A DNA stretch of 64,000 nt. Origin: Escherichia coli. GTDB taxonomy: Bacteria > Pseudomonadota > Gammaproteobacteria > Enterobacterales > Enterobacteriaceae. Within the stretch, counting starts at the first letter, position 1. Each line of letters begins with the position of its first letter. This document shows, one piece after another, positions 2,148 to 57,631 of this stretch. The stretch lies in NCBI RefSeq assembly GCF_041886205.1, contig NZ_CP169029.1; one strand, written 5' to 3'. The position numbers and the translations under genes are program-made. A model generated the notes under the pieces. The model made no database searches. It was not told the origin of the DNA and saw only the letters and a program-made list of their open reading frames with translations.

Positions 2148-3392
2148 CTATAGCTGTTTATTCCAGAGATGCTTGAAAATATCTAATGTTGAGACAACAT
2201 TGGCAGGCGACATTCGGTTTAATGAGGGTAGAAAGGGATGAGCCTCCAGGAAGTTGATAAAACGAGTCGCGCTTGCCAACGTCGAATTCCGCATTTCATT
2301 TGCTTTCTTGTTTCCTGTAAGGTTACAAACAGCCATTGAATAATCACGGGCGGAAAATGCACGCCAGACATTATTTCTCACGCCACCACTCAAAAATAAC
2401 CGCGGCGGCGTATCATAATGAGTCGTTTTCTCGCCGCGCTCTTTCACAAAGGAAATATGGCACCGGCCTTGATGAATATGCTGCAAATTAGCCATCAGAC
2501 AACCGCCTAATATAAAGCACTCGTTATCAAGGTAGTGTTGAATATTTATAGAATATCCTTCAGTCAGTACTCTAACCAGTTCAAAATGGCGATACGCCGG
2601 AAGAACCGGTTTCACCAGCATCCCCGGATCGTTTTGATGTAATATCGCCCGACCATAATCAATATCAAATAAGGTATCACGCCGCATAGTAAGTAACTCC
2701 TTGCGTTGTACGTGATGCGCCAGTGTACCTGGAGACAAACGCTCTTCATAACTTGATGCATACTGATAATGCGACTCTACCGCTGATGGAGAATAATTTG
2801 TTGAAATAGCGACAACTCTACCGCTTTGTTCTTCTGTGGTAACAAGACTATAAAGATAGTTATTACTACCGTTAAACTTTACGCGAAAAGCACGGGTAGC
2901 TAGAGAAATATCAGAAGCAGAAGAGTACTGGCGACTTTCTTTATAGTTTACTTCCCGGGCTAGTTTTATCAATTCACGGTTAAGCCCTGTGCTATTAAGA
3001 AGTAATAATTTACGGATATCAGCAAGTGAAGCACCTTGCTCAATCATCAATGCTAACTGTGTTCTTCGCGGCGTTGTATTTACATGATCCAGAGTGATAA
3101 ATGTTCTGGAACAATGATGACAATACATTCTCCTCTGCCCTTGAGCTGAATAACCATACTTTTTCAGAGATGTGCTTCCGCAAGCTGAACATTGTGGAAC
3201 CAACCCTCGCCATGAATGATTAACACGATTACGATAAATATTAAGAGATCGTTCAGATATCACAGGAAAAAAGTAACCGCATTCCCGACATAAAATATTT
3301 TTGCCTTGTGCAATATAATCCTGGCTATTCAACAATCCCAAGTTTTTGCATCCTGGTGTTTTGCAACAATCAACATTTACGTTGGTAAACAT
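2148..3392 (-). CDS. Cys-rich hypothetical protein with N-terminal zinc-ribbon motifs (C-x2-C...C-x2-C, InsA/IS1595-like) and a possible HTH; function unknown
   Basis: ORF track 2148..3428 (426 aa); internal ATG at 3392 (MFTNVNVDCCKTPGC...) has a GGGAG Shine-Dalgarno 5 nt upstream so is the preferred start; motifs CRECG and CSACG-x20-CHHCSRTF; AT-rich codon usage. Confidence 0.6.
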   Translation of the reverse strand: MFTNVNVDCCKTPGCKNLGLLNSQDYIAQGKNILCRECGYFFPVISERSLNIYRNRVNHSWRGLVPQCSACGSTSLKKYGYSAQGQRRMYCHHCSRTFITLDHVNTTPRRTQLALMIEQGASLADIRKLLLLNSTGLNRELIKLAREVNYKESRQYSSASDISLATRAFRVKFNGSNNYLYSLVTTEEQSGRVVAISTNYSPSAVESHYQYASSYEERLSPGTLAHHVQRKELLTMRRDTLFDIDYGRAILHQNDPGMLVKPVLPAYRHFELVRVLTEGYSINIQHYLDNECFILGGCLMANLQHIHQGRCHISFVKERGEKTTHYDTPPRLFLSGGVRNNVWRAFSARDYSMAVCNLTGNKKANEMRNSTLASATRFINFLEAHPFLPSLNRMSPANVVSTLDIFKHLWNKQL

Positions 3393-3429
3393 ATTCACTC
3401 CCTGCGAATATCCGGATATTATCGTCATA

Positions 3430-3473
3430 CGTCAAAGAAAAGAACCTGATTCAATGTGTAACATTGAATCAGG
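3430..3473 (-). terminator. Probable intrinsic terminator downstream of the sulfatase gene
   Basis: Perfect 12-bp inverted repeat cctgattcaatg/cattgaatcagg (3445-3473) with 5-nt loop, followed on the minus strand by TTCTTTTCTTT. Confidence 0.5.
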
Positions 3474-3521
3474 CGGGCATAGCCCTGAAAGGCATACATT
3501 ACATTTATTATGGTTATCAGA

Positions 3522-5015
3522 TTAGCCCCAGGTTACCGCTTCCGGTTTATCACCTCTGGCTTTCATTAATGAATCATTATCAATATCGGCTTTATATTTT
3601 AAGAACTTACCATACATTTGTTTTTCAATGTCTGGATTTTTACCTATCTGATTAATAGTCTCAAAACGATCGGTTTTGAGGTTATATAGGTACTTTGGCT
3701 TATTGTTACGATCGATGATCATTTTCCAGTCACCATCACGTATCGCCCATTCGTCGGTTGGATCATCCTGGAATGGCATGTCAATTCCGAAGATTAATGG
3801 CTTTTCACGTTTTAGCGCTTTGTTCTCAAGGACAGGAACCAACGATTCGCCATCAAAAGTGCGGTCCGTCGGTAATTTGAAGTTCATCATTTTCGCCAGC
3901 GTAGGCATCCAGTCCAGACCATAAACTGGCGTATCTGAAACCATTCCCTTTGGAAGATGTTTACCGTATTTAATAATTGCCGGAACACGGATGCCGCCTT
4001 CCCAAAGATTATCCTTGCGACCACGTAATCCATCAGTTTCACCTGCCAAATTCAGTTCATAAACTTTGCGTGCTTCACGCGTTACTGGGCCGTTGTCACT
4101 GGTAAAAATTATGATGGTGTTATCTTCTTCACCCATCGCTTTAATTTTATCCAGCACTTTTCCAACCTGAGCATCCAGATAACTGATGTTGGCATAATAT
4201 TCTCCTGTACCACGCCAGGGTTTATCCGCCCAGTCGCCATAAAATAAATCAGGATGCTGCTTCTGATATTCGCTCATATATTGTGAGTACATGTCGAGGT
4301 ATTTTTTGGGCGAAGCCAGGGGACTATGTACTTCGGTAAAAGCGACATAAAGGAAGAAAGGCTTACTGTCCTTTTTGTTATCCAACCAGTTAACAACTTC
4401 CGAACTGACATACTCACCACTCATTTTATCGGAACGTGGCGTTGGTTGCCCGTTACGCAACCAACCCGTTGGATAGACCATGCCAAAACGGGGACGCTCC
4501 TTCGCATTATCCAGAGTAGCGTCGGTAACAAAACCCGCCGTATTAACCAGTGAGTAATCAAAGCCCATATCTTTTGCCTGCGGCTGATCGGTGCGATCGC
4601 CGCCTGCATTCAGATGCAGCTTACCCATCATGGCCGTGTCGTACCCTTGCGCTTTGAGTAGATTAGCAATCGTGAGTTCATTACGCCCTAATGCCACATC
4701 TTTTCCCGTTGGGATCCATGAGCGTATGCCAGTACGAAATGGCATCCGCCCTGTTAATAGTCCCGCCCGTGAAGGAGAACTTAAGGGGGCAGGTGCATAG
4801 TAGTCGGTAAATTTGACGCCTTCCCGGGCAAGCCTGTCTATATTGGGCGTTTTAACGATCTGATGTCCATATGTTGCCAAATCACCATACCCTAAATCAT
4901 CCGCCATAATGATGACTAAATTGGGTTGTTTAGTCTCGGCGGCTACGGCTGGATTAAAAGCATTCCCTGTGCAAACTGCAAGGCCGATCAAACTGGCCAT
5001 TAATGTTTTCTGCAT
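3522..5015 (-). CDS. Secreted sulfatase (arylsulfatase family), Ser-type active-site motif
   Basis: ORF track 3522..5051; ATG at 5015 with AGGA 6 nt upstream gives MQKTLMASLIGLAVCTGNAFNPAVAAE signal peptide; N-terminal DDLGYGD metal-binding motif and SSPSRAGLLTGR formylglycine signature with Ser in the modified position. Confidence 0.85.
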   Translation of the reverse strand: MQKTLMASLIGLAVCTGNAFNPAVAAETKQPNLVIIMADDLGYGDLATYGHQIVKTPNIDRLAREGVKFTDYYAPAPLSSPSRAGLLTGRMPFRTGIRSWIPTGKDVALGRNELTIANLLKAQGYDTAMMGKLHLNAGGDRTDQPQAKDMGFDYSLVNTAGFVTDATLDNAKERPRFGMVYPTGWLRNGQPTPRSDKMSGEYVSSEVVNWLDNKKDSKPFFLYVAFTEVHSPLASPKKYLDMYSQYMSEYQKQHPDLFYGDWADKPWRGTGEYYANISYLDAQVGKVLDKIKAMGEEDNTIIIFTSDNGPVTREARKVYELNLAGETDGLRGRKDNLWEGGIRVPAIIKYGKHLPKGMVSDTPVYGLDWMPTLAKMMNFKLPTDRTFDGESLVPVLENKALKREKPLIFGIDMPFQDDPTDEWAIRDGDWKMIIDRNNKPKYLYNLKTDRFETINQIGKNPDIEKQMYGKFLKYKADIDNDSLMKARGDKPEAVTWG

Positions 5016-5034
5016 AATTATTCCTTTATGAAAA

Positions 5035-5796
5035 TTAGAAATCATAACCAAGCATATAAATCATTTGATCGCCAAAACCATCGTAGCCTAACTTATTATC
5101 GAAATAACGCCACGTCACACTGGCTTTCCAGCGAGGACAGAACTTCCAGGCAACTGTTAAACCGCCATTTAGCCCATTCCGACCAAATTGTTGTTCCGCA
5201 TAGGCATCATTTCTGTCCAGTTCTATTTCATTCCAGTTAGATAAAACAAATTTTTCGTCAAATAACGTAAAAGGTAATACTGCTGTCCAACCAACAACAT
5301 AACCATTCCAGCCATTTGTTTGACCATATTTGGCTGAGACATAGTCTCCAGATTGATTATGTAATCCTATATACGGTTTAAAAAATCCCCACGAACCATT
5401 CCAGCCGAGGTAGCCCAAGCCATAAAACATATCAAGATCGTCACCCCATGAGTTATCCCATTGACCATAGATCTTGCCAAAGAAAGTCATATCGGAGTCA
5501 AAAAGTCTGACATGTGTCATAGCAGAAACGGTATGATTACGCCCCGCTACGGCATGGTTAAGCACATTGCTTTCATAAAATGAGTAAAACTCGGCTTCTT
5601 TAAAATTCACACCAAAGTCCGCAGTCACTTTCCATACTTCACCACGGTGAGTGTTAACGAAGCCACTATTCCAGTCAGCATAACCTGCATTTATTGAGCC
5701 AAAGGAACCTTTATATTCTAATGAAGAATATGCAGGAAGATGATAGATAATCGTTGTCAGGGCACACGCAATAAGAAGCCGTCTTTTGGCAGACAT
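5035..5796 (-). CDS. Tsx/OmpK-family outer-membrane channel (nucleoside-channel-like beta-barrel)
   Basis: 253-aa ORF with signal peptide MSAKRRLLIACALTTIIYHLPAYS, aromatic-rich alternating beta-strand pattern, C-terminal ...MLGYDF resembling the Tsx C-terminus; GGAGA RBS upstream of ATG at 5796. Confidence 0.75.
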   Translation of the reverse strand: MSAKRRLLIACALTTIIYHLPAYSSLEYKGSFGSINAGYADWNSGFVNTHRGEVWKVTADFGVNFKEAEFYSFYESNVLNHAVAGRNHTVSAMTHVRLFDSDMTFFGKIYGQWDNSWGDDLDMFYGLGYLGWNGSWGFFKPYIGLHNQSGDYVSAKYGQTNGWNGYVVGWTAVLPFTLFDEKFVLSNWNEIELDRNDAYAEQQFGRNGLNGGLTVAWKFCPRWKASVTWRYFDNKLGYDGFGDQMIYMLGYDF

Positions 5797-6304
5797 ATAA
5801 TATGCTCTCCATTCATTGTTTTTATGTTTCCATAGTATTCAATACATCAGATAATTCATTTTGATTAAGAACGACCCAGAAAGTATATTTAAAGGTGAAT
5901 AGCAAAGCGTGATGAAGATCGCATATTACTTTTACACCAGGGTGTGGAGGTATCGTGTTTCAAAAAGTGTGTCTATTTTAAATATCACTCATTGATTTAT
6001 AGACATTTTTTCCTTATAAAAAACACTAAATTCTGTACAAGAATATTTTGTATCTTCTATTACTTTCTCCAGTAATAACTCACCATCCAGTCATAACTTA
6101 AATCTGCTTGTTCATAATCTTAATTTTTGTAAATGAAAAGGCACATAAGAGTTAAAATAAACAATGAACTAAAGATTAATTATGCAAAAATGCGAGGCGT
6201 CTTCAGGATTAGAATCGATAAAACAGAATGGGTTAAAAAGAGCGATATAATAGCGGCGGGTGCTTGAGGCTATCTGTCTCAGGCATTAGCTGAACGGCAG
6301 ATAG

Positions 6305-6359
6305 AGAAAAGCCCCGAGTGATATTTTACTATCAACCCGAGGCCCCCTATATGCTGAAC
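6305..6359 (-). ncRNA. sokC: sokC antisense RNA of the hokC/mokC type I toxin-antitoxin locus (approximate)
   Basis: Placed by position: antisense to the mokC translation-initiation region as in hok/sok loci; not independently delimited from sequence. Confidence 0.4.
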
Positions 6360-6560
6360 ACATGTAGAGTGCCTCTTACTGACCGTAAGGTCAAGGAGAA
6401 GAGAGCAATGAAGCAGCATAAGGCGATGATTGTCGCCCTGATCGTCATCTGTATCACCGCCGTAGTGGCGGCGCTGGTAACGAGAAAAGACCTCTGTGAG
6501 GTTCACATCCGAACTGGCCAGACGGAGGTTGCTGTTTTCACGGCTTACGAATCCGAGTAA
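6351..6560 (+). CDS. mokC: MokC, overlapping regulatory reading frame of hokC
   Basis: MLNTCRVPLTDRKVKEKRAMKQHKAM... within ORF 6318..6560; shares its stop with hokC. Confidence 0.85.
   Translation: MLNTCRVPLTDRKVKEKRAMKQHKAMIVALIVICITAVVAALVTRKDLCEVHIRTGQTEVAVFTAYESE
6408..6560 (+). CDS. hokC: HokC (Gef) small membrane toxin, type I TA
   Basis: 50-aa MKQHKAMIVALIVICITAVVAALVTRKDLCEVHIRTGQTEVAVFTAYESE. Confidence 0.92.
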   Translation: MKQHKAMIVALIVICITAVVAALVTRKDLCEVHIRTGQTEVAVFTAYESE

Positions 6561-6571
6561 GAGCAACGGCG

Positions 6572-6583
6572 GGGAGTGATCCC
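6572..6583. repeat. Target-site duplication flanking IS186 (left copy)
   Basis: gggagtgatccc immediately outside the left IS end; identical 12-mer at 7921..7932; joined flanks give GGGG-N6-CCCC. Confidence 0.75.
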
Positions 6584-7920
6584 ATAAGCGCTAACTTAAG
6601 GGTTGTGGTATTACGCCTGATATGATTTAACGTGCCGATGAATTACTCTCACGATAACTGGTCAGCAATTCTGGCCCATATTGGTAAGCCCGAAGAACTG
6701 GATACTTCGGCACGTAATGCCGGGGCTCTAACCCGCCGCCGCGAAATTCGTGATGCTGCAACTCTGCTACGTCTGGGGCTGGCTTACGGCCCCGGGGGGA
6801 TGTCATTACGTGAAGTCACTGCATGGGCTCAGCTCCATGACGTTGCAACATTATCTGACGTGGCTCTCCTGAAGCGGCTGCGGAATGCCGCCGACTGGTT
6901 TGGCATACTTGCCGCACAAACACTTGCTGTACGCGCCGCAGTTACGGGTTGTACAAGCGGAAAGAGATTGCGTCTTGTCGATGGAACAGCAATCAGTGCG
7001 CCCGGGGGCGGCAGCGCTGAATGGCGACTACATATGGGATATGATCCTCATACCTGTCAGTTCACTGATTTTGAGCTAACCGACAGCAGAGACGCTGAAC
7101 GGCTGGACCGATTTGCGCAAACGGCAGACGAGATACGCATTGCTGACCGGGGATTCGGTTCGCGTCCCGAATGTATCCGCTCACTTGCTTTTGGAGAAGC
7201 TGATTATATCGTCCGGGTTCACTGGCGAGGATTGCGCTGGTTAACTGCAGAAGGAATGCGCTTTGACATGATGGGTTTTCTGCGCGGGCTGGATTGCGGT
7301 AAGAACGGTGAAACCACTGTAATGATAGGCAATTCAGGTAATAAAAAAGCCGGAGCTCCCTTTCCGGCACGTCTCATTGCCGTATCACTTCCTCCCGAAA
7401 AAGCATTAATCAGTAAAACCCGACTGCTCAGCGAGAATCGTCGAAAAGGACGAGTAGTTCAGGCGGAAACGCTGGAAGCAGCGGGCCATGTGCTATTGCT
7501 AACATCATTACCGGAAGATGAATATTCAGCAGAGCAAGTGGCTGATTGTTACCGTCTGCGATGGCAAATTGAACTGGCTTTTAAGCGGCTCAAAAGTTTG
7601 CTGCACCTGGATGCTTTGCGTGCAAAGGAACCTGAACTCGCGAAAGCGTGGATATTTGCTAATCTACTCGCCGCATTTTTAATTGACGACATAATCCAGC
7701 CATCGCTGGATTTCCCCCCCAGAAGTGCCGGATCCGAAAAGAAGAACTAACTCGTTGTGGAGAATAACAAAAATGGTCATCTGGAGCTTACAGGTGGCCA
7801 TTCGTGGGACAGTATCCCTGACAGCCTACAAAACGCAATTGAAGAACGCGAGGCATCGTCTTAACGAGGCACCGAGGCGTCGCATTCTTCAGATGGTTCA
7901 ACCCTTAAGTTAGCGCTTAT
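6584..7920 (+). mobile_element. IS186 insertion sequence (IS4 family)
   Basis: Terminal inverted repeats ataagcgctaacttaagggttg (left) / caacccttaagttagcgcttat (right); about 1337 bp; encodes InsL; ends uncertain by 1-2 bp. Confidence 0.9.
6638..7750 (+). CDS. insL: IS186 transposase InsL
   Basis: ORF 6632..7750; MNYSHDNWSAILAHIGKPEELDTSARNAGALTRRREIRDAATLLRLG... about 370 aa. Confidence 0.93.
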   Translation: MNYSHDNWSAILAHIGKPEELDTSARNAGALTRRREIRDAATLLRLGLAYGPGGMSLREVTAWAQLHDVATLSDVALLKRLRNAADWFGILAAQTLAVRAAVTGCTSGKRLRLVDGTAISAPGGGSAEWRLHMGYDPHTCQFTDFELTDSRDAERLDRFAQTADEIRIADRGFGSRPECIRSLAFGEADYIVRVHWRGLRWLTAEGMRFDMMGFLRGLDCGKNGETTVMIGNSGNKKAGAPFPARLIAVSLPPEKALISKTRLLSENRRKGRVVQAETLEAAGHVLLLTSLPEDEYSAEQVADCYRLRWQIELAFKRLKSLLHLDALRAKEPELAKAWIFANLLAAFLIDDIIQPSLDFPPRSAGSEKKN

Positions 7921-7932
7921 GGGAGTGATCCC
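7921..7932. repeat. Target-site duplication flanking IS186 (right copy)
   Basis: gggagtgatccc identical to 6572..6583. Confidence 0.75.
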
Positions 7933-7983
7933 CGCCACTTTTCAGGTGCTCGCATATCTTCAACGCACCCTAATTTTACCCAA

Positions 7984-8009
7984 GCCTGCCCACGGGCAGG
8001 CTTTTGGGG
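7984..8009. terminator. GC-rich hairpin between IS186 and dnaJ, probable terminator
   Basis: gcctgcc-cac-gggcaggc stem-loop followed by TTTT on the plus strand; just downstream of the dnaJ stop on the minus strand. Confidence 0.4.
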
Positions 8010-8012
8010 AGG

Positions 8013-9143
8013 TTAGCGGGTCAGGTCGTCAAAAAACTTCTTCACACCATCAAAGAAGCTCTTTGAGCGCGGGCTGTTGTGCTCACCGGTTGGGCCACCG
8101 AAGCTTTCTTGCAGCTCTTGCAGCAACTGTTTCTGCTTCTCGTTCAGGCCTACCGGTGTTTCGACGACAACGCGGCACAGCAAATCACCCTGTGCGCCAC
8201 CGCGGACAGACTTGACGCCTTTACCGCGCATACGGAAAAGCTTACCGGTCTGGGTTTCGCCAGGCACTTTCAGTTTGACGCGACCATCAAGGGTCGGTAC
8301 TTCGATTTCGCCACCCAGCGCCGCCATAGCGAAGTTGATCGGGACTTCGCAATAGAGGTTGTTGCCTTCACGCTCGAAAATCGGGTGCTGTTTAACCTGA
8401 ACCTGAACGTACAGATCGCCTGCCGGTGCGCCATGCTCGCCCGCTTCACCTTCGCCCGCAAGACGGATGCGGTCTCCAGTGTCCACCCCTGCCGGGATTT
8501 TAACGGACAGCGTTTTGCTGCGCTCAACACGACCATGACCATGACATTTGTTGCACGGATCTTTGATCAGCGTACCGCGGCCCTGACAGTGTGGACAGGT
8601 CTGCTGTACAGCGAAGAATCCCTGGCGCATCTGCACCTGACCAGAACCATGACAGGTCGGACAGGTCTGCGGCTGTGTACCTGGTTTTGCACCGCTACCG
8701 TGGCAAACGTCACACTCTTCCAGAGTCGGAATGCGGATCTCTTTGGTCACGCCACGTACAGCTTCTTCGAGGGTGAGCTCCATGTTATAGCGTAAATCAG
8801 CACCGCGCGCCGCACGTTGACGACCACGTCCGCCGCCAAAAATATCGCCGAAAACGTCACCAAAAATATCGCTGAAGTCTGCGCCGCCGCCAAAACCGCC
8901 GCCGCCCATGCCACCTTGCTCAAACGCAGCATGACCATACTGATCGTATGCCGCACGTTTTTGCGAGTCGGTCAGAACTTCATAAGCTTCCTTGATCTCT
9001 TTAAATTTCGCCTCGGCCTCTTTGTCACCCTGGTTACGGTCCGGGTGGTATTTCATGGCCAGGCGTTTGTAGGCCTTTTTGATTTCACGCTCTTCCGCTG
9101 TTTTGGAAACGCCTAAAATCTCGTAATAATCTTGCTTAGCCAT
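8013..9143 (-). CDS. dnaJ: Chaperone DnaJ (Hsp40)
   Basis: [40 protein letters not shown]..., J domain, G/F region, four CxxCxGxG zinc repeats; track ORF extended upstream to 9173. Confidence 0.97.
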
Positions 9144-9231
9144 CTTTTTTAAATTGCCCCTAGATGAATGCACGGGCGGAGAGGAAATTCCCCTTCGCCC
9201 GTGTCAGTATAATTACCCGTTTATAGGGCGA

Positions 9232-22974: not shown

Positions 22975-23000
22975 GGTTGTTACCTCGTTACCTTTGGTCG

Positions 23001-23036
23001 AAAAAAAAGCCCGCACTGTCAGGTGCGGGCTTTTTT
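23001..23036 (-). terminator. thr attenuator
   Basis: Minus strand GCCCGCACCTGACAGTGCGGGC hairpin followed by a run of 8 T, between thrL and thrA. Confidence 0.9.
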
Positions 23037-23054
23037 CTGTGTTTCCTGTACGCG

Positions 23055-23123
<69 letters not shown>

Positions 23124-31204: not shown

Positions 31205-31738
<534 letters not shown>

Positions 31739-31740
31739 GA

Positions 31741-31818
31741 CGGATAAGGCGTTCACGCCGCATCCGGCATTCGGTGCACGATGCCTGATGCGACGCTGCC
31801 GCGTCTTATCAGGCCTAC
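31741..31818. repeat. REP element pair
   Basis: ggcgttcacgccgcatccggca ... gcctgatgcgacgctgccgcgtcttatcaggcctac. Confidence 0.8.
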
Positions 31819-36186: not shown

Positions 36187-36350
36187 AATGCCGGATGCGG
36201 CGCGAACGCCTTATCCGGCCTACAAAACCAGCAATTTCAATACGTTGTAAAACTGTAGGCCTGATAAGACGCGGTAAGCGTCGCATCAGGCATTGAGCAC
36301 CGAATGCCGGATACGGCGTGAACGCCTTTTCCGGCCTACAACAGCCTTAG
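36187..36350. repeat. REP cluster (BIME-like) downstream of ettA
   Basis: Three REP units: gccggatgcggcgcgaacgccttatccggcctac, gtaggcctgataagacgcggtaagcgtcgcatcaggc, gccggatacggcgtgaacgccttttccggcctac. Confidence 0.85.
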
Positions 36351-49312: not shown

Positions 49313-49528
49313 ATGCCGGATACGGCCTACGGTTCGGCACAGACTTGTAGGCATGATAAGACGCGACAAGCGTCGCATCAGGCATTGTGCGCCAACTGCC
49401 GGATGCGGCGTGAACGCCTTATCCGGCCTACGGTTCGGCACAAACCTGTAGGCATGATAAGACGCGACAAGCGTCGCATCAGGCATTATGCGCCGACTGC
49501 CGGATGCTGCCTACGAAGGGTAAACTAC
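49313..49528. repeat. Tandemly duplicated REP/BIME unit (about 101-bp period, 2 copies)
   Basis: ctacggttcggcac...gtaggcatgataagacgcgacaagcgtcgcatcaggcatt...gccggatgc at 49327 repeats at 49428 with a few substitutions; fills the spacer between convergent yjjW and yjjV. Confidence 0.85.
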
Positions 49529-57308: not shown

Positions 57309-57395
57309 GCGAAGGTGGCGGAATTGGTAGACGCGCTAGCTTCAGGTGTTAGTGTCCTTACGGACGTGGGGGTTCAAGTCCCCCCCCTCGCACCA
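57309..57395 (+). tRNA. leuQ: tRNA-Leu (anticodon CAG), copy 1
   Basis: GCGAAGGTGGCGGAATTGGTAGACGCGCTAGCTTCAGGTGTTAGTGTCCTTACGGACGTGGGGGTTCAAGTCCCCCCCCTCGCACCA, 87 nt, long variable arm, encoded CCA. Confidence 0.95.
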
Positions 57396-57423
57396 AAAAC
57401 CACGTTGATATTGCTCGCACTGG

Positions 57424-57510
57424 GCGAAGGTGGCGGAATTGGTAGACGCGCTAGCTTCAGGTGTTAGTGTTCTTACGGACGTGGGGGTTCAAGTCCCCCC
57501 CCTCGCACCA
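57424..57510 (+). tRNA. leuP: tRNA-Leu (anticodon CAG), copy 2; one substitution (C to T) in the variable arm versus copies 1 and 3
   Basis: Same 87-nt sequence except GTTAGTGTTCTTACGGAC in place of GTTAGTGTCCTTACGGAC. Confidence 0.95.
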
Positions 57511-57544
57511 AACGAGGCGATATCAAAAAAAGTAAGATGACTGT

Positions 57545-57631
57545 GCGAAGGTGGCGGAATTGGTAGACGCGCTAGCTTCAGGTGTTAGTGTCCTTACGGA
57601 CGTGGGGGTTCAAGTCCCCCCCCTCGCACCA
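57545..57631 (+). tRNA. leuV: tRNA-Leu (anticodon CAG), copy 3
   Basis: Identical to copy 1; ends ...CCCCCCCCTCGCACCA. Confidence 0.95.

Follow-up and report, generated by a model that had tools for sequence, protein, structure and literature searches.

In the K-12 strain MG1655, a copy of IS186 lies between hokC and dnaJ. The window analyzed here, a 64,000-nucleotide stretch of Escherichia coli DNA, also carries an IS186 between these two genes, and a preliminary description of it suggested, without certainty, that insL is annotated on the opposite strand in MG1655. We therefore asked whether one site has received the same element in two orientations and, if so, how the two arrangements arose.

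A complete IS186 copy inverted relative to K-12

We found that the segment enclosed by the direct repeats (Table 1) is identical at 1337 of 1337 nt to each of the three MG1655 copies, IS186A, IS186B, and IS186C. As the preliminary description had proposed, it is bounded by terminal inverted repeats of 22 to 23 bp: 22 nt are perfect, and a 23rd base, C at 6583 and G at 7921, extends the motif to (C)ATAAGCGCTAACTTAAGGGTTG. Because the target is itself quasi-palindromic, the inverted repeat stretches to 38 nt at 89% identity. Within the 64-kb window, the 22-mer end is confined to these two sites, and shuffled sequences are expected to contain none. The two copies of GGGAGTGATCCC that flank the segment are 100% identical over 12 nt at a spacing of 1349. 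Since the bases bordering them differ on both sides (g versus t before, a versus c after), the repeats extend no further than 12 bp and enclose 1337 bp. The probability that a 12-bp match abuts both IS186 ends by chance is ~4^-12. When joined, the flanks reconstruct GGGGAGTGATCCCC, the GGGG-N6-CCCC target with duplication that had been claimed for this element, and a natural empty allele is identical to the joined flanks over 812 bp. Together, these data identify the window element as a complete and intact IS186 copy of the IS4 family (IS421 family in PGAP annotation).

IS copies are a classic source of misassembly, and an assembly artefact or a chance repeat, with no real insertion at the hokC site, could in principle produce such a picture. 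We give this reading a negligible probability, as the same junctions recur in ~900 independent complete genomes and the combination of 22-mer ends with a 12-mer repeat is far beyond chance.

Table 1. Positions of the IS186 copy and of the surrounding hokC–dnaJ features in the window
Feature	Coordinates	Strand	Basis or remark
hokC mRNA 5′ leader and overlapping sokC antisense region	6258..6410	+	Rfam RF01794 'sok'
hokC toxin CDS, 50 aa (MKQHKAMIVAL...)	6408..6560	+	ORF list; annotation in LZSFT34 and MG1655
Left direct repeat GGGAGTGATCCC	6572..6583	.	Repeat finder
IS186 core	6584..7920	+ (set by insL)	1337 bp; 0 differences from MG1655 IS186A/B/C
Left terminal inverted repeat ATAAGCGCTAACTTAAGGGTTG	6584..6605	+	Repeat finder
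insL transposase gene, 370 aa	6638..7750	+	ORF list, domain matches
Right terminal inverted repeat	7899..7920	-	Perfect complement of left repeat
Right direct repeat GGGAGTGATCCC	7921..7932	.	Repeat finder
Fold-back (fbi-like) element, hokC mRNA 3′ UTR	7958..7970	+	Predicted to pair with mRNA 5′ end in empty allele
GC-rich hairpin AAGCCTGCCC-ACG-GGGCAGGCTT, then TTTTGG	7982..8003	.	Inverted repeat I9; terminal hairpin in fold
dnaJ, right-hand neighbor	8013..9143	-	ORF list; fixes locus and relative orientation

The only long open reading frame of the element (6632–7750, plus strand) holds the ATG at 6638 and runs without interruption to a stop codon at 7748–7750, in agreement with the intact 370-aa InsL described earlier. 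The product matched Pfam DDE_Tnp_1 (PF01609, E=1.6e-26) and NCBIfam transpos_IS4_1 (NF033592, 133.3 bits against a cutoff of 115), both above cutoff. Residues 305 to 319 (YRLRWQIELAFKRLK) retain an intact Y-2-R-3-E-6-K (YREK) signature, and the catalytic residues are D117 (LVDGT), D170 (IADRGF), and E312. The element thus has a single DDE transposase with the IS4-type signature, and PGAP labels the identical gene in other genomes 'IS4-like element IS421 family transposase'. A Pfam match was also sought for a 62-aa frame at 7725–7913, and none was found.

Cut-and-paste elements of the IS4 family, such as IS10, IS50/Tn5, and IS231, have short terminal inverted repeats and generate 9–12-bp duplications. 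IS186 resembles them in its inverted repeats and in its DDE transposase with the Y-2-R-3-E-6-K motif, but differs in a target that is unusually strict, GC-rich, and symmetric. Transposition through a hairpin intermediate has been demonstrated for IS10 and IS50 but, to our knowledge, not for IS186. The portion of the IS4 family survey accessible to us makes no mention of IS186 or IS421 (PMC2266710).

Judged by its sequence, the window copy is fully functional, and its identity to the K-12 copies, whose transposition rate is ~0.4e-4 per genome per generation (PMC5009759), suggests that it can still transpose. A 14-nt imperfect inverted repeat within the element (6630–6643 and 6702–6715) spans the insL start (GTG 6632/ATG 6638) and could block the start of translation on read-through transcripts, as happens in IS10 and IS50. 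Since the predicted fold of 6584–6730 around this start is not significantly stable (z = -1.7), we make no claim for a sequestered start codon.

Comparison with MG1655 shows that the insertion, between hokC and dnaJ, occupies the known site of IS186A. The hokC gene of the window lies within an 80-aa mokC frame (6318–6560), and mokC/hokC are annotated both in the identical region of LZSFT34 and in MG1655. When the MG1655 locus is read in the window orientation, IS186A (insL1, b0016) shares with the window element its identical 1337 bp, the neighboring genes, the flanks, the duplicated target GGGAGTGATCCC (plus strand), and the insertion point, but lies the other way round with respect to hokC and dnaJ. 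In MG1655, insL1 is codirectional with dnaJ and converges on hokC, while in the window insL is codirectional with hokC and converges on dnaJ. When stated with respect to these flanking genes, the suggested opposite strand was thus correct; the insertion point is the same to the base pair, and the difference is real rather than an artefact of the displayed strand.

The window also differs from K-12 by an ompK-sulfatase island between hokC and nhaA. This island (~2148–5796) encodes OmpK (5035–5796, minus strand), a sulfatase-family protein, and a protein labeled 'IS1/IS1595 N-terminal zinc-binding domain'. It is missing from K-12, BL21, and several other strains, in which nhaA adjoins hokC.

The ends of IS186 and the length of the duplication

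Several conventions exist for the ends of IS186. The maximal direct repeat gives an element of 1337 bp with a 12-bp duplication. The duplication has also been given as '6-7 core nucleotides' (PMC5009759), and by our reckoning a 6-bp core would imply an element of 1343 bp. The MG1655 annotation takes in four extra bases per side (1345 bp), for which we calculate a 4-bp duplication. All four copies examined, that of the window and the three of K-12, read ...CCC|ATAAG...CTTAT|GGG..., lie in G4-N6-C4 targets, and have a maximal repeat of 12 bp. At such targets, the bases of the element and of the target are inseparable.

A scan of viral contigs yielded 42 loci with the IS186 left end. None of these had a base other than C at position -1, and only one copy had a base other than C at position -2. 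This copy (L028, contig IMGVR_UViG_2718217885_000014) is identical to that of the window and lies in a prophage rusA gene, as does match H165. Its target, GGGGGTGTGGGAAGAC, is noncanonical and has no C run, and its junctions read ...GGGGGTGTGGGA-C|ATAAG...CTTAT|GGGGTGTGGGA-AGAC. Removal of the element, the C, and one GGGGTGTGGGA leaves a sequence that is present uninterrupted in strain N96 (RusA), with 100% identity over 500 bp. The terminal C is therefore borne by the element, which makes the inverted repeat 23 bp long, and the duplication in rusA measures 10–11 bp.

C6583 thus belongs to the terminus of IS186, and by symmetry G7921 probably does as well. The window element is best delimited as 6583–7920/7921, which with these terminal bases amounts to 1338–1339 bp. 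The target duplication proper is then probably 10–11 bp and not 12, its left copy probably spanning 6572/6573–6582. The 12-bp repeats are identical because the terminal C and G of the element match the target. A published length of 1338 bp, as quoted in a later paper, agrees with an element-borne C (Sengstag et al. 1986, cited in PMC3562002). With any of these delimitations, the two flanking repeats are still identical, so this part of the preliminary description is unaffected by the choice of ends. We rejected the 6-bp and 4-bp readings, as L028 reads ...GGGA-C|ATAAG and not ...CCC|ATAAG and duplicates at least 10 bp.

A scan of genome contigs for ends with a base other than C at position -2 returned a single odd contig, JAAENC010000225.1, from a metagenome-assembled genome labeled Chloroflexi. 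At 1437–1460, it has a G10 run followed by an exact 23-bp IS186 end, CATAAGCGCTAACTTAAGGGTTG. The 1.5-kb contig is unrelated to IS186 in its interior and may come from a relative with the same inverted repeat, from a chimera, or from contamination; it agrees, if weakly, with C being part of the inverted repeat.

The target is a hairpin of the hokC mRNA

The hokC locus belongs with the hok/sok type I toxin-antitoxin loci by its 50-aa Hok-family frame, the overlapping mokC frame, and a sok region scoring 122.4 bits with Rfam RF01794 (gathering score 59). The GGGG-N6-CCCC motif is the stem of a hairpin at the 3′ side of hokC (GGCGGGG-AGTGAT-CCCCGCC), 23 nt beyond the stop codon. In the empty allele, an 8-bp-stem hairpin, GGCGGGGA-GUGA-UCCCCGCC, is predicted just past the hokC stop codon. 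The 405-nt region of the hokC transcript from this allele has a predicted fold of -170 kcal/mol (z = -5.7 versus shuffled sequences), and in the minimum free energy structure, a single-sequence prediction, 12 pairs join the 5′ element at 6258–6269 to the fold-back element. By analogy with hok of plasmid R1, we regard the latter as a putative fbi and the predicted pairing as consistent with the tac/fbi architecture. The hairpin at 7982–8003 is likely to be a terminator common to the converging hokC and dnaJ transcripts, as judged from the fold. A scan of 6100–8200 found no sigma-70 promoter sites, and terminator-like sites in the same interval were at chance level.

The insertion sets the fbi-like element 1349 bp away from hokC. 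It likely splits the hairpin and takes both the fold-back element and the terminator off the hokC transcript. Disruption of fbi by IS186 has been described for gef/hokC of K-12 (PMC3562002), and, as proposed for that case, the insertion should disable the normal folding and processing of the hokC mRNA. In the window orientation, transcription reading through hokC would enter insL in the sense direction.

The target rule at other IS186 sites

Nearly all of 59 de novo IS186 insertions were located at GGGG(N6/N7)CCCC, and single sites were hit up to 16 times, 'in either orientation' (Lee et al. 2016, PMC5009759). A new insertion in the lon promoter was likewise reported 'at the same position ... 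in the opposite orientation' (Lyons et al. 2011, PMC3045373). The lon promoter and the other hotspots thus share with the hokC site the target rule, repeated independent hits, and both orientations; they differ in that those events were seen in laboratory lineages, whereas the recurrence at the hokC hairpin described below extends across natural isolates. Such hotspot insertions of IS186 are reportedly also the subject of an article by SaiSree et al. (2001).

The same rule is apparent in other IS186 copies. In viral contigs, 22 of 27 distinct left flanks of IS186 end in GGGG-N6/7-CCC, and a plasmid-type hok site and another G4-N6-C4 site are each occupied there in both orientations. In MG1655, the identical element IS186B (insL2) lies downstream of hokE, in the homologous 3′ hairpin of this paralogous hok gene (GGGGAGTAATCCCC). 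As in the window, its insL is codirectional with the hok gene, but the locus is another one (hokE–entD) and one base of the N6 core differs. IS186 also lies in the homologous hairpin, GGGGAGAGATCCCC, of a hok homologue from a phage-like plasmid of 93 kb. The attraction of hok loci for IS186 is explained by their conserved 3′ hairpin, a perfect GGGG-N6-CCCC target.

The only GGGG-N7-CCCC motifs in the window lie in three tandem tRNA-Leu(CAG) genes (57309–57631), each of which has GGGGGTTCAAGTCCCCCCCC in its T arm; none of the three is occupied, and the window holds no unoccupied N6 motif. In two viral contigs (L033 and L034), IS186 lies beside T-arm-like flanks (GGGTTCAAGTCCCC), and tRNA T arms may be natural IS186 targets. 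A further viral contig (L016, 2388–3750) carries IS186 with the left flank of the hokC site and the right flank of another G4-N6-C4 site, GGGAGAAATCCCCGCAACCTCTGA. It has no matching duplication, and either an IS-mediated rearrangement or an assembly chimera could account for it.

Three states of the hokC site and their origin

We surveyed the site in 5,426 complete E. coli genomes. It was empty in 3,816 (end-to-end match to an 812-bp query of joined flanks), occupied in the window orientation in ~916 (905 with a junction-only query), occupied in the K-12 orientation in ~670, and in another state in ~23; the genome set is redundant and includes many K-12 and B laboratory derivatives, so that neither these counts nor the resulting occupancy of ~29% are natural frequencies. 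Empty sites in related strains, which the preliminary description suggested looking for, were found; in strain KSC207, the site reads GGGGAGTGATCCCC and matches the joined flanks of the window at 100% over 812 bp.

Among the other states is that of strain EC-16-35 (NZ_CP093226.1, 1800–4200), in which the hokC left flank is followed by IS186 and then by the entD right flank of the hokE site. The half-duplications do not match (GGGAGTGATCCC versus GGGAGTAATCCC). This junction bears the mark of recombination between the hokC and hokE copies of IS186 and probably reflects a large inversion. EC-16-35 also has an IS150 just upstream of hokC, as do matches H6 to H14 of the search with the window orientation.

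The intactness of the window copy, its identity to the K-12 copies, and the exact empty twin of its flanks would fit a young and active element, as had been proposed. 'Recent' holds only in a relative sense, however: the window-type allele is not strain-specific but common to ~900 complete genomes with several flank haplotypes. Decayed versions of IS186 were also found, with a 2-bp frameshift in strain 2014EL-1343-2 and a 25-bp deletion in strain G5.

Next, we compared flank haplotypes among ~10 sampled alleles. Over 420 bp on the left and 1300 bp on the right, the window differs from MG1655 at 28 of 1720 positions (17 left, 11 right) and from BL21 at 14 left and 7 right positions, while MG1655 and BL21 differ at 5 left and 16 right positions. 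The SNPs that separate the haplotypes W (window), K (MG1655), and B (BL21) come as close as ~6 bp to the left and ~10 bp to the right of the duplicated target. Each of the three haplotypes has a 100% identical empty twin, in KSC207 (W), in JP538 (K), and in at least 12 strains (B). The window orientation was found on further haplotypes as well, in strains 98202 and 2014EL-1343-2. Strain G5 (NZ_CP060065.1) has the flanks of MG1655 (0/330 differences left, 0/700 right), but its IS186 lies in the window orientation, with the deletion corresponding to window 7757–7781, just past the insL stop codon. The K-12 flank haplotype is thus known in the empty, forward, and reverse states. To move occupied alleles between haplotypes by recombination, crossovers in very short intervals would be needed, and separate insertions are the simpler reading. 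With an exact empty counterpart for each of three haplotypes, and with both orientations on the K-12 haplotype, these alleles point to at least four separate insertion events at the hokC hotspot, a minimum from the ~10 alleles sampled.

The flank haplotypes also bear on two other histories. In the first, a single K-12-oriented insertion was later flipped in place by recombination or template switching between the terminal inverted repeats. The position, the duplication, and the IS sequence are the same in both orientations, the inverted repeat reaches 38 nt at 89%, and G5 combines the exact K-12 flank haplotype with the opposite orientation, all of which speak for such a flip. Perfect homology of 22–23 bp is, however, a poor substrate for RecA recombination. 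In addition, an exactly matching empty allele exists for the W haplotype, which is set apart from K and B by SNPs within 6–10 bp of the target, so that deriving it from occupied K or B alleles would require crossovers confined to implausibly short stretches. De novo insertions have been recorded in both orientations at one and the same site (PMC5009759, PMC3045373), which makes a flip unnecessary; a flip would also be much rarer a priori. We therefore regard in-place inversion as improbable.

In the second history, one ancient insertion per orientation was followed by repeated precise excision, and the empty sites are revertants. Direct repeats around an IS can mediate precise excision, and every occupied haplotype does have its empty twin. 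Yet empty sites are the majority (3,816 of 5,426) and include the most divergent flanks (95–97% identity), while the sampled occupied alleles are all at least 99% identical. Excision was also ~750-fold rarer than insertion in mutation-accumulation lines (1 versus 758; PMC5009759). This second history appears more doubtful still, and we consider it very unlikely.

The orientation difference from K-12 is therefore best read as the result of independent hits on one hotspot and not of a rearrangement. In the sequence of events that we propose, the InsL DDE transposase would have inserted IS186 by cut-and-paste into the GGGG-N6-CCCC motif of the hairpin in the hokC mRNA 3′ UTR, and staggered cleavage followed by repair would have duplicated 10–12 bp of the target. 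The symmetry of this motif would let IS186 enter either way round; the window copy presumably entered with insL codirectional with hokC, and those of K-12 and B went into that position in reverse. Insertion would have split the hairpin and moved the 3′ fold-back element and the terminator of the hokC mRNA 1.35 kb off. As a whole, this account, which combines an intact IS186, an independent hotspot insertion in the hokC hairpin, and a consequent effect on the hokC mRNA, is in our judgment very likely to be right, its mechanism and its effect on the mRNA being the inferred parts.

In view of the ~29% occupancy, the minimum of four events in both orientations, and the hits at paralogous hok loci, there is a slight chance that occupancy of the hokC hairpin is not neutral, either because recurrent silencing or rewiring of the toxin is selected, because orientation matters through read-through from hokC into insL, or because an in-place flip acts as a switch.

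IS186, its target motif, the hokC neighborhood, and entry in either orientation are already known, and the case, in which element, site, and rules are all familiar, carries little weight in itself. The present analysis adds the confirmed inversion relative to K-12, a three-state polymorphism with counts, evidence for at least four independent events, the connection of the target motif with the 3′ hairpin of hok, and refined ends of the element. Our literature search (IS186, opposite orientation, dnaJ) found no paper describing an orientation polymorphism at the natural hokC–dnaJ site. The locus provides a clean natural example of recurrent two-way insertion at one hotspot in wild E. coli, and annotators should be aware that it is polymorphic, with empty, forward, and reverse states.

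The remaining Rfam matches in the window are ordinary E. coli content and confirm the thr-dnaKJ-hokC region. They comprise tpke11 in the dnaK–dnaJ intergenic region (9144–9221, minus strand), the thr operon leader (23000–23119, minus strand), and three REP-type naRNA4 elements (31738–31815, 36258–36336, and 49350–49428).
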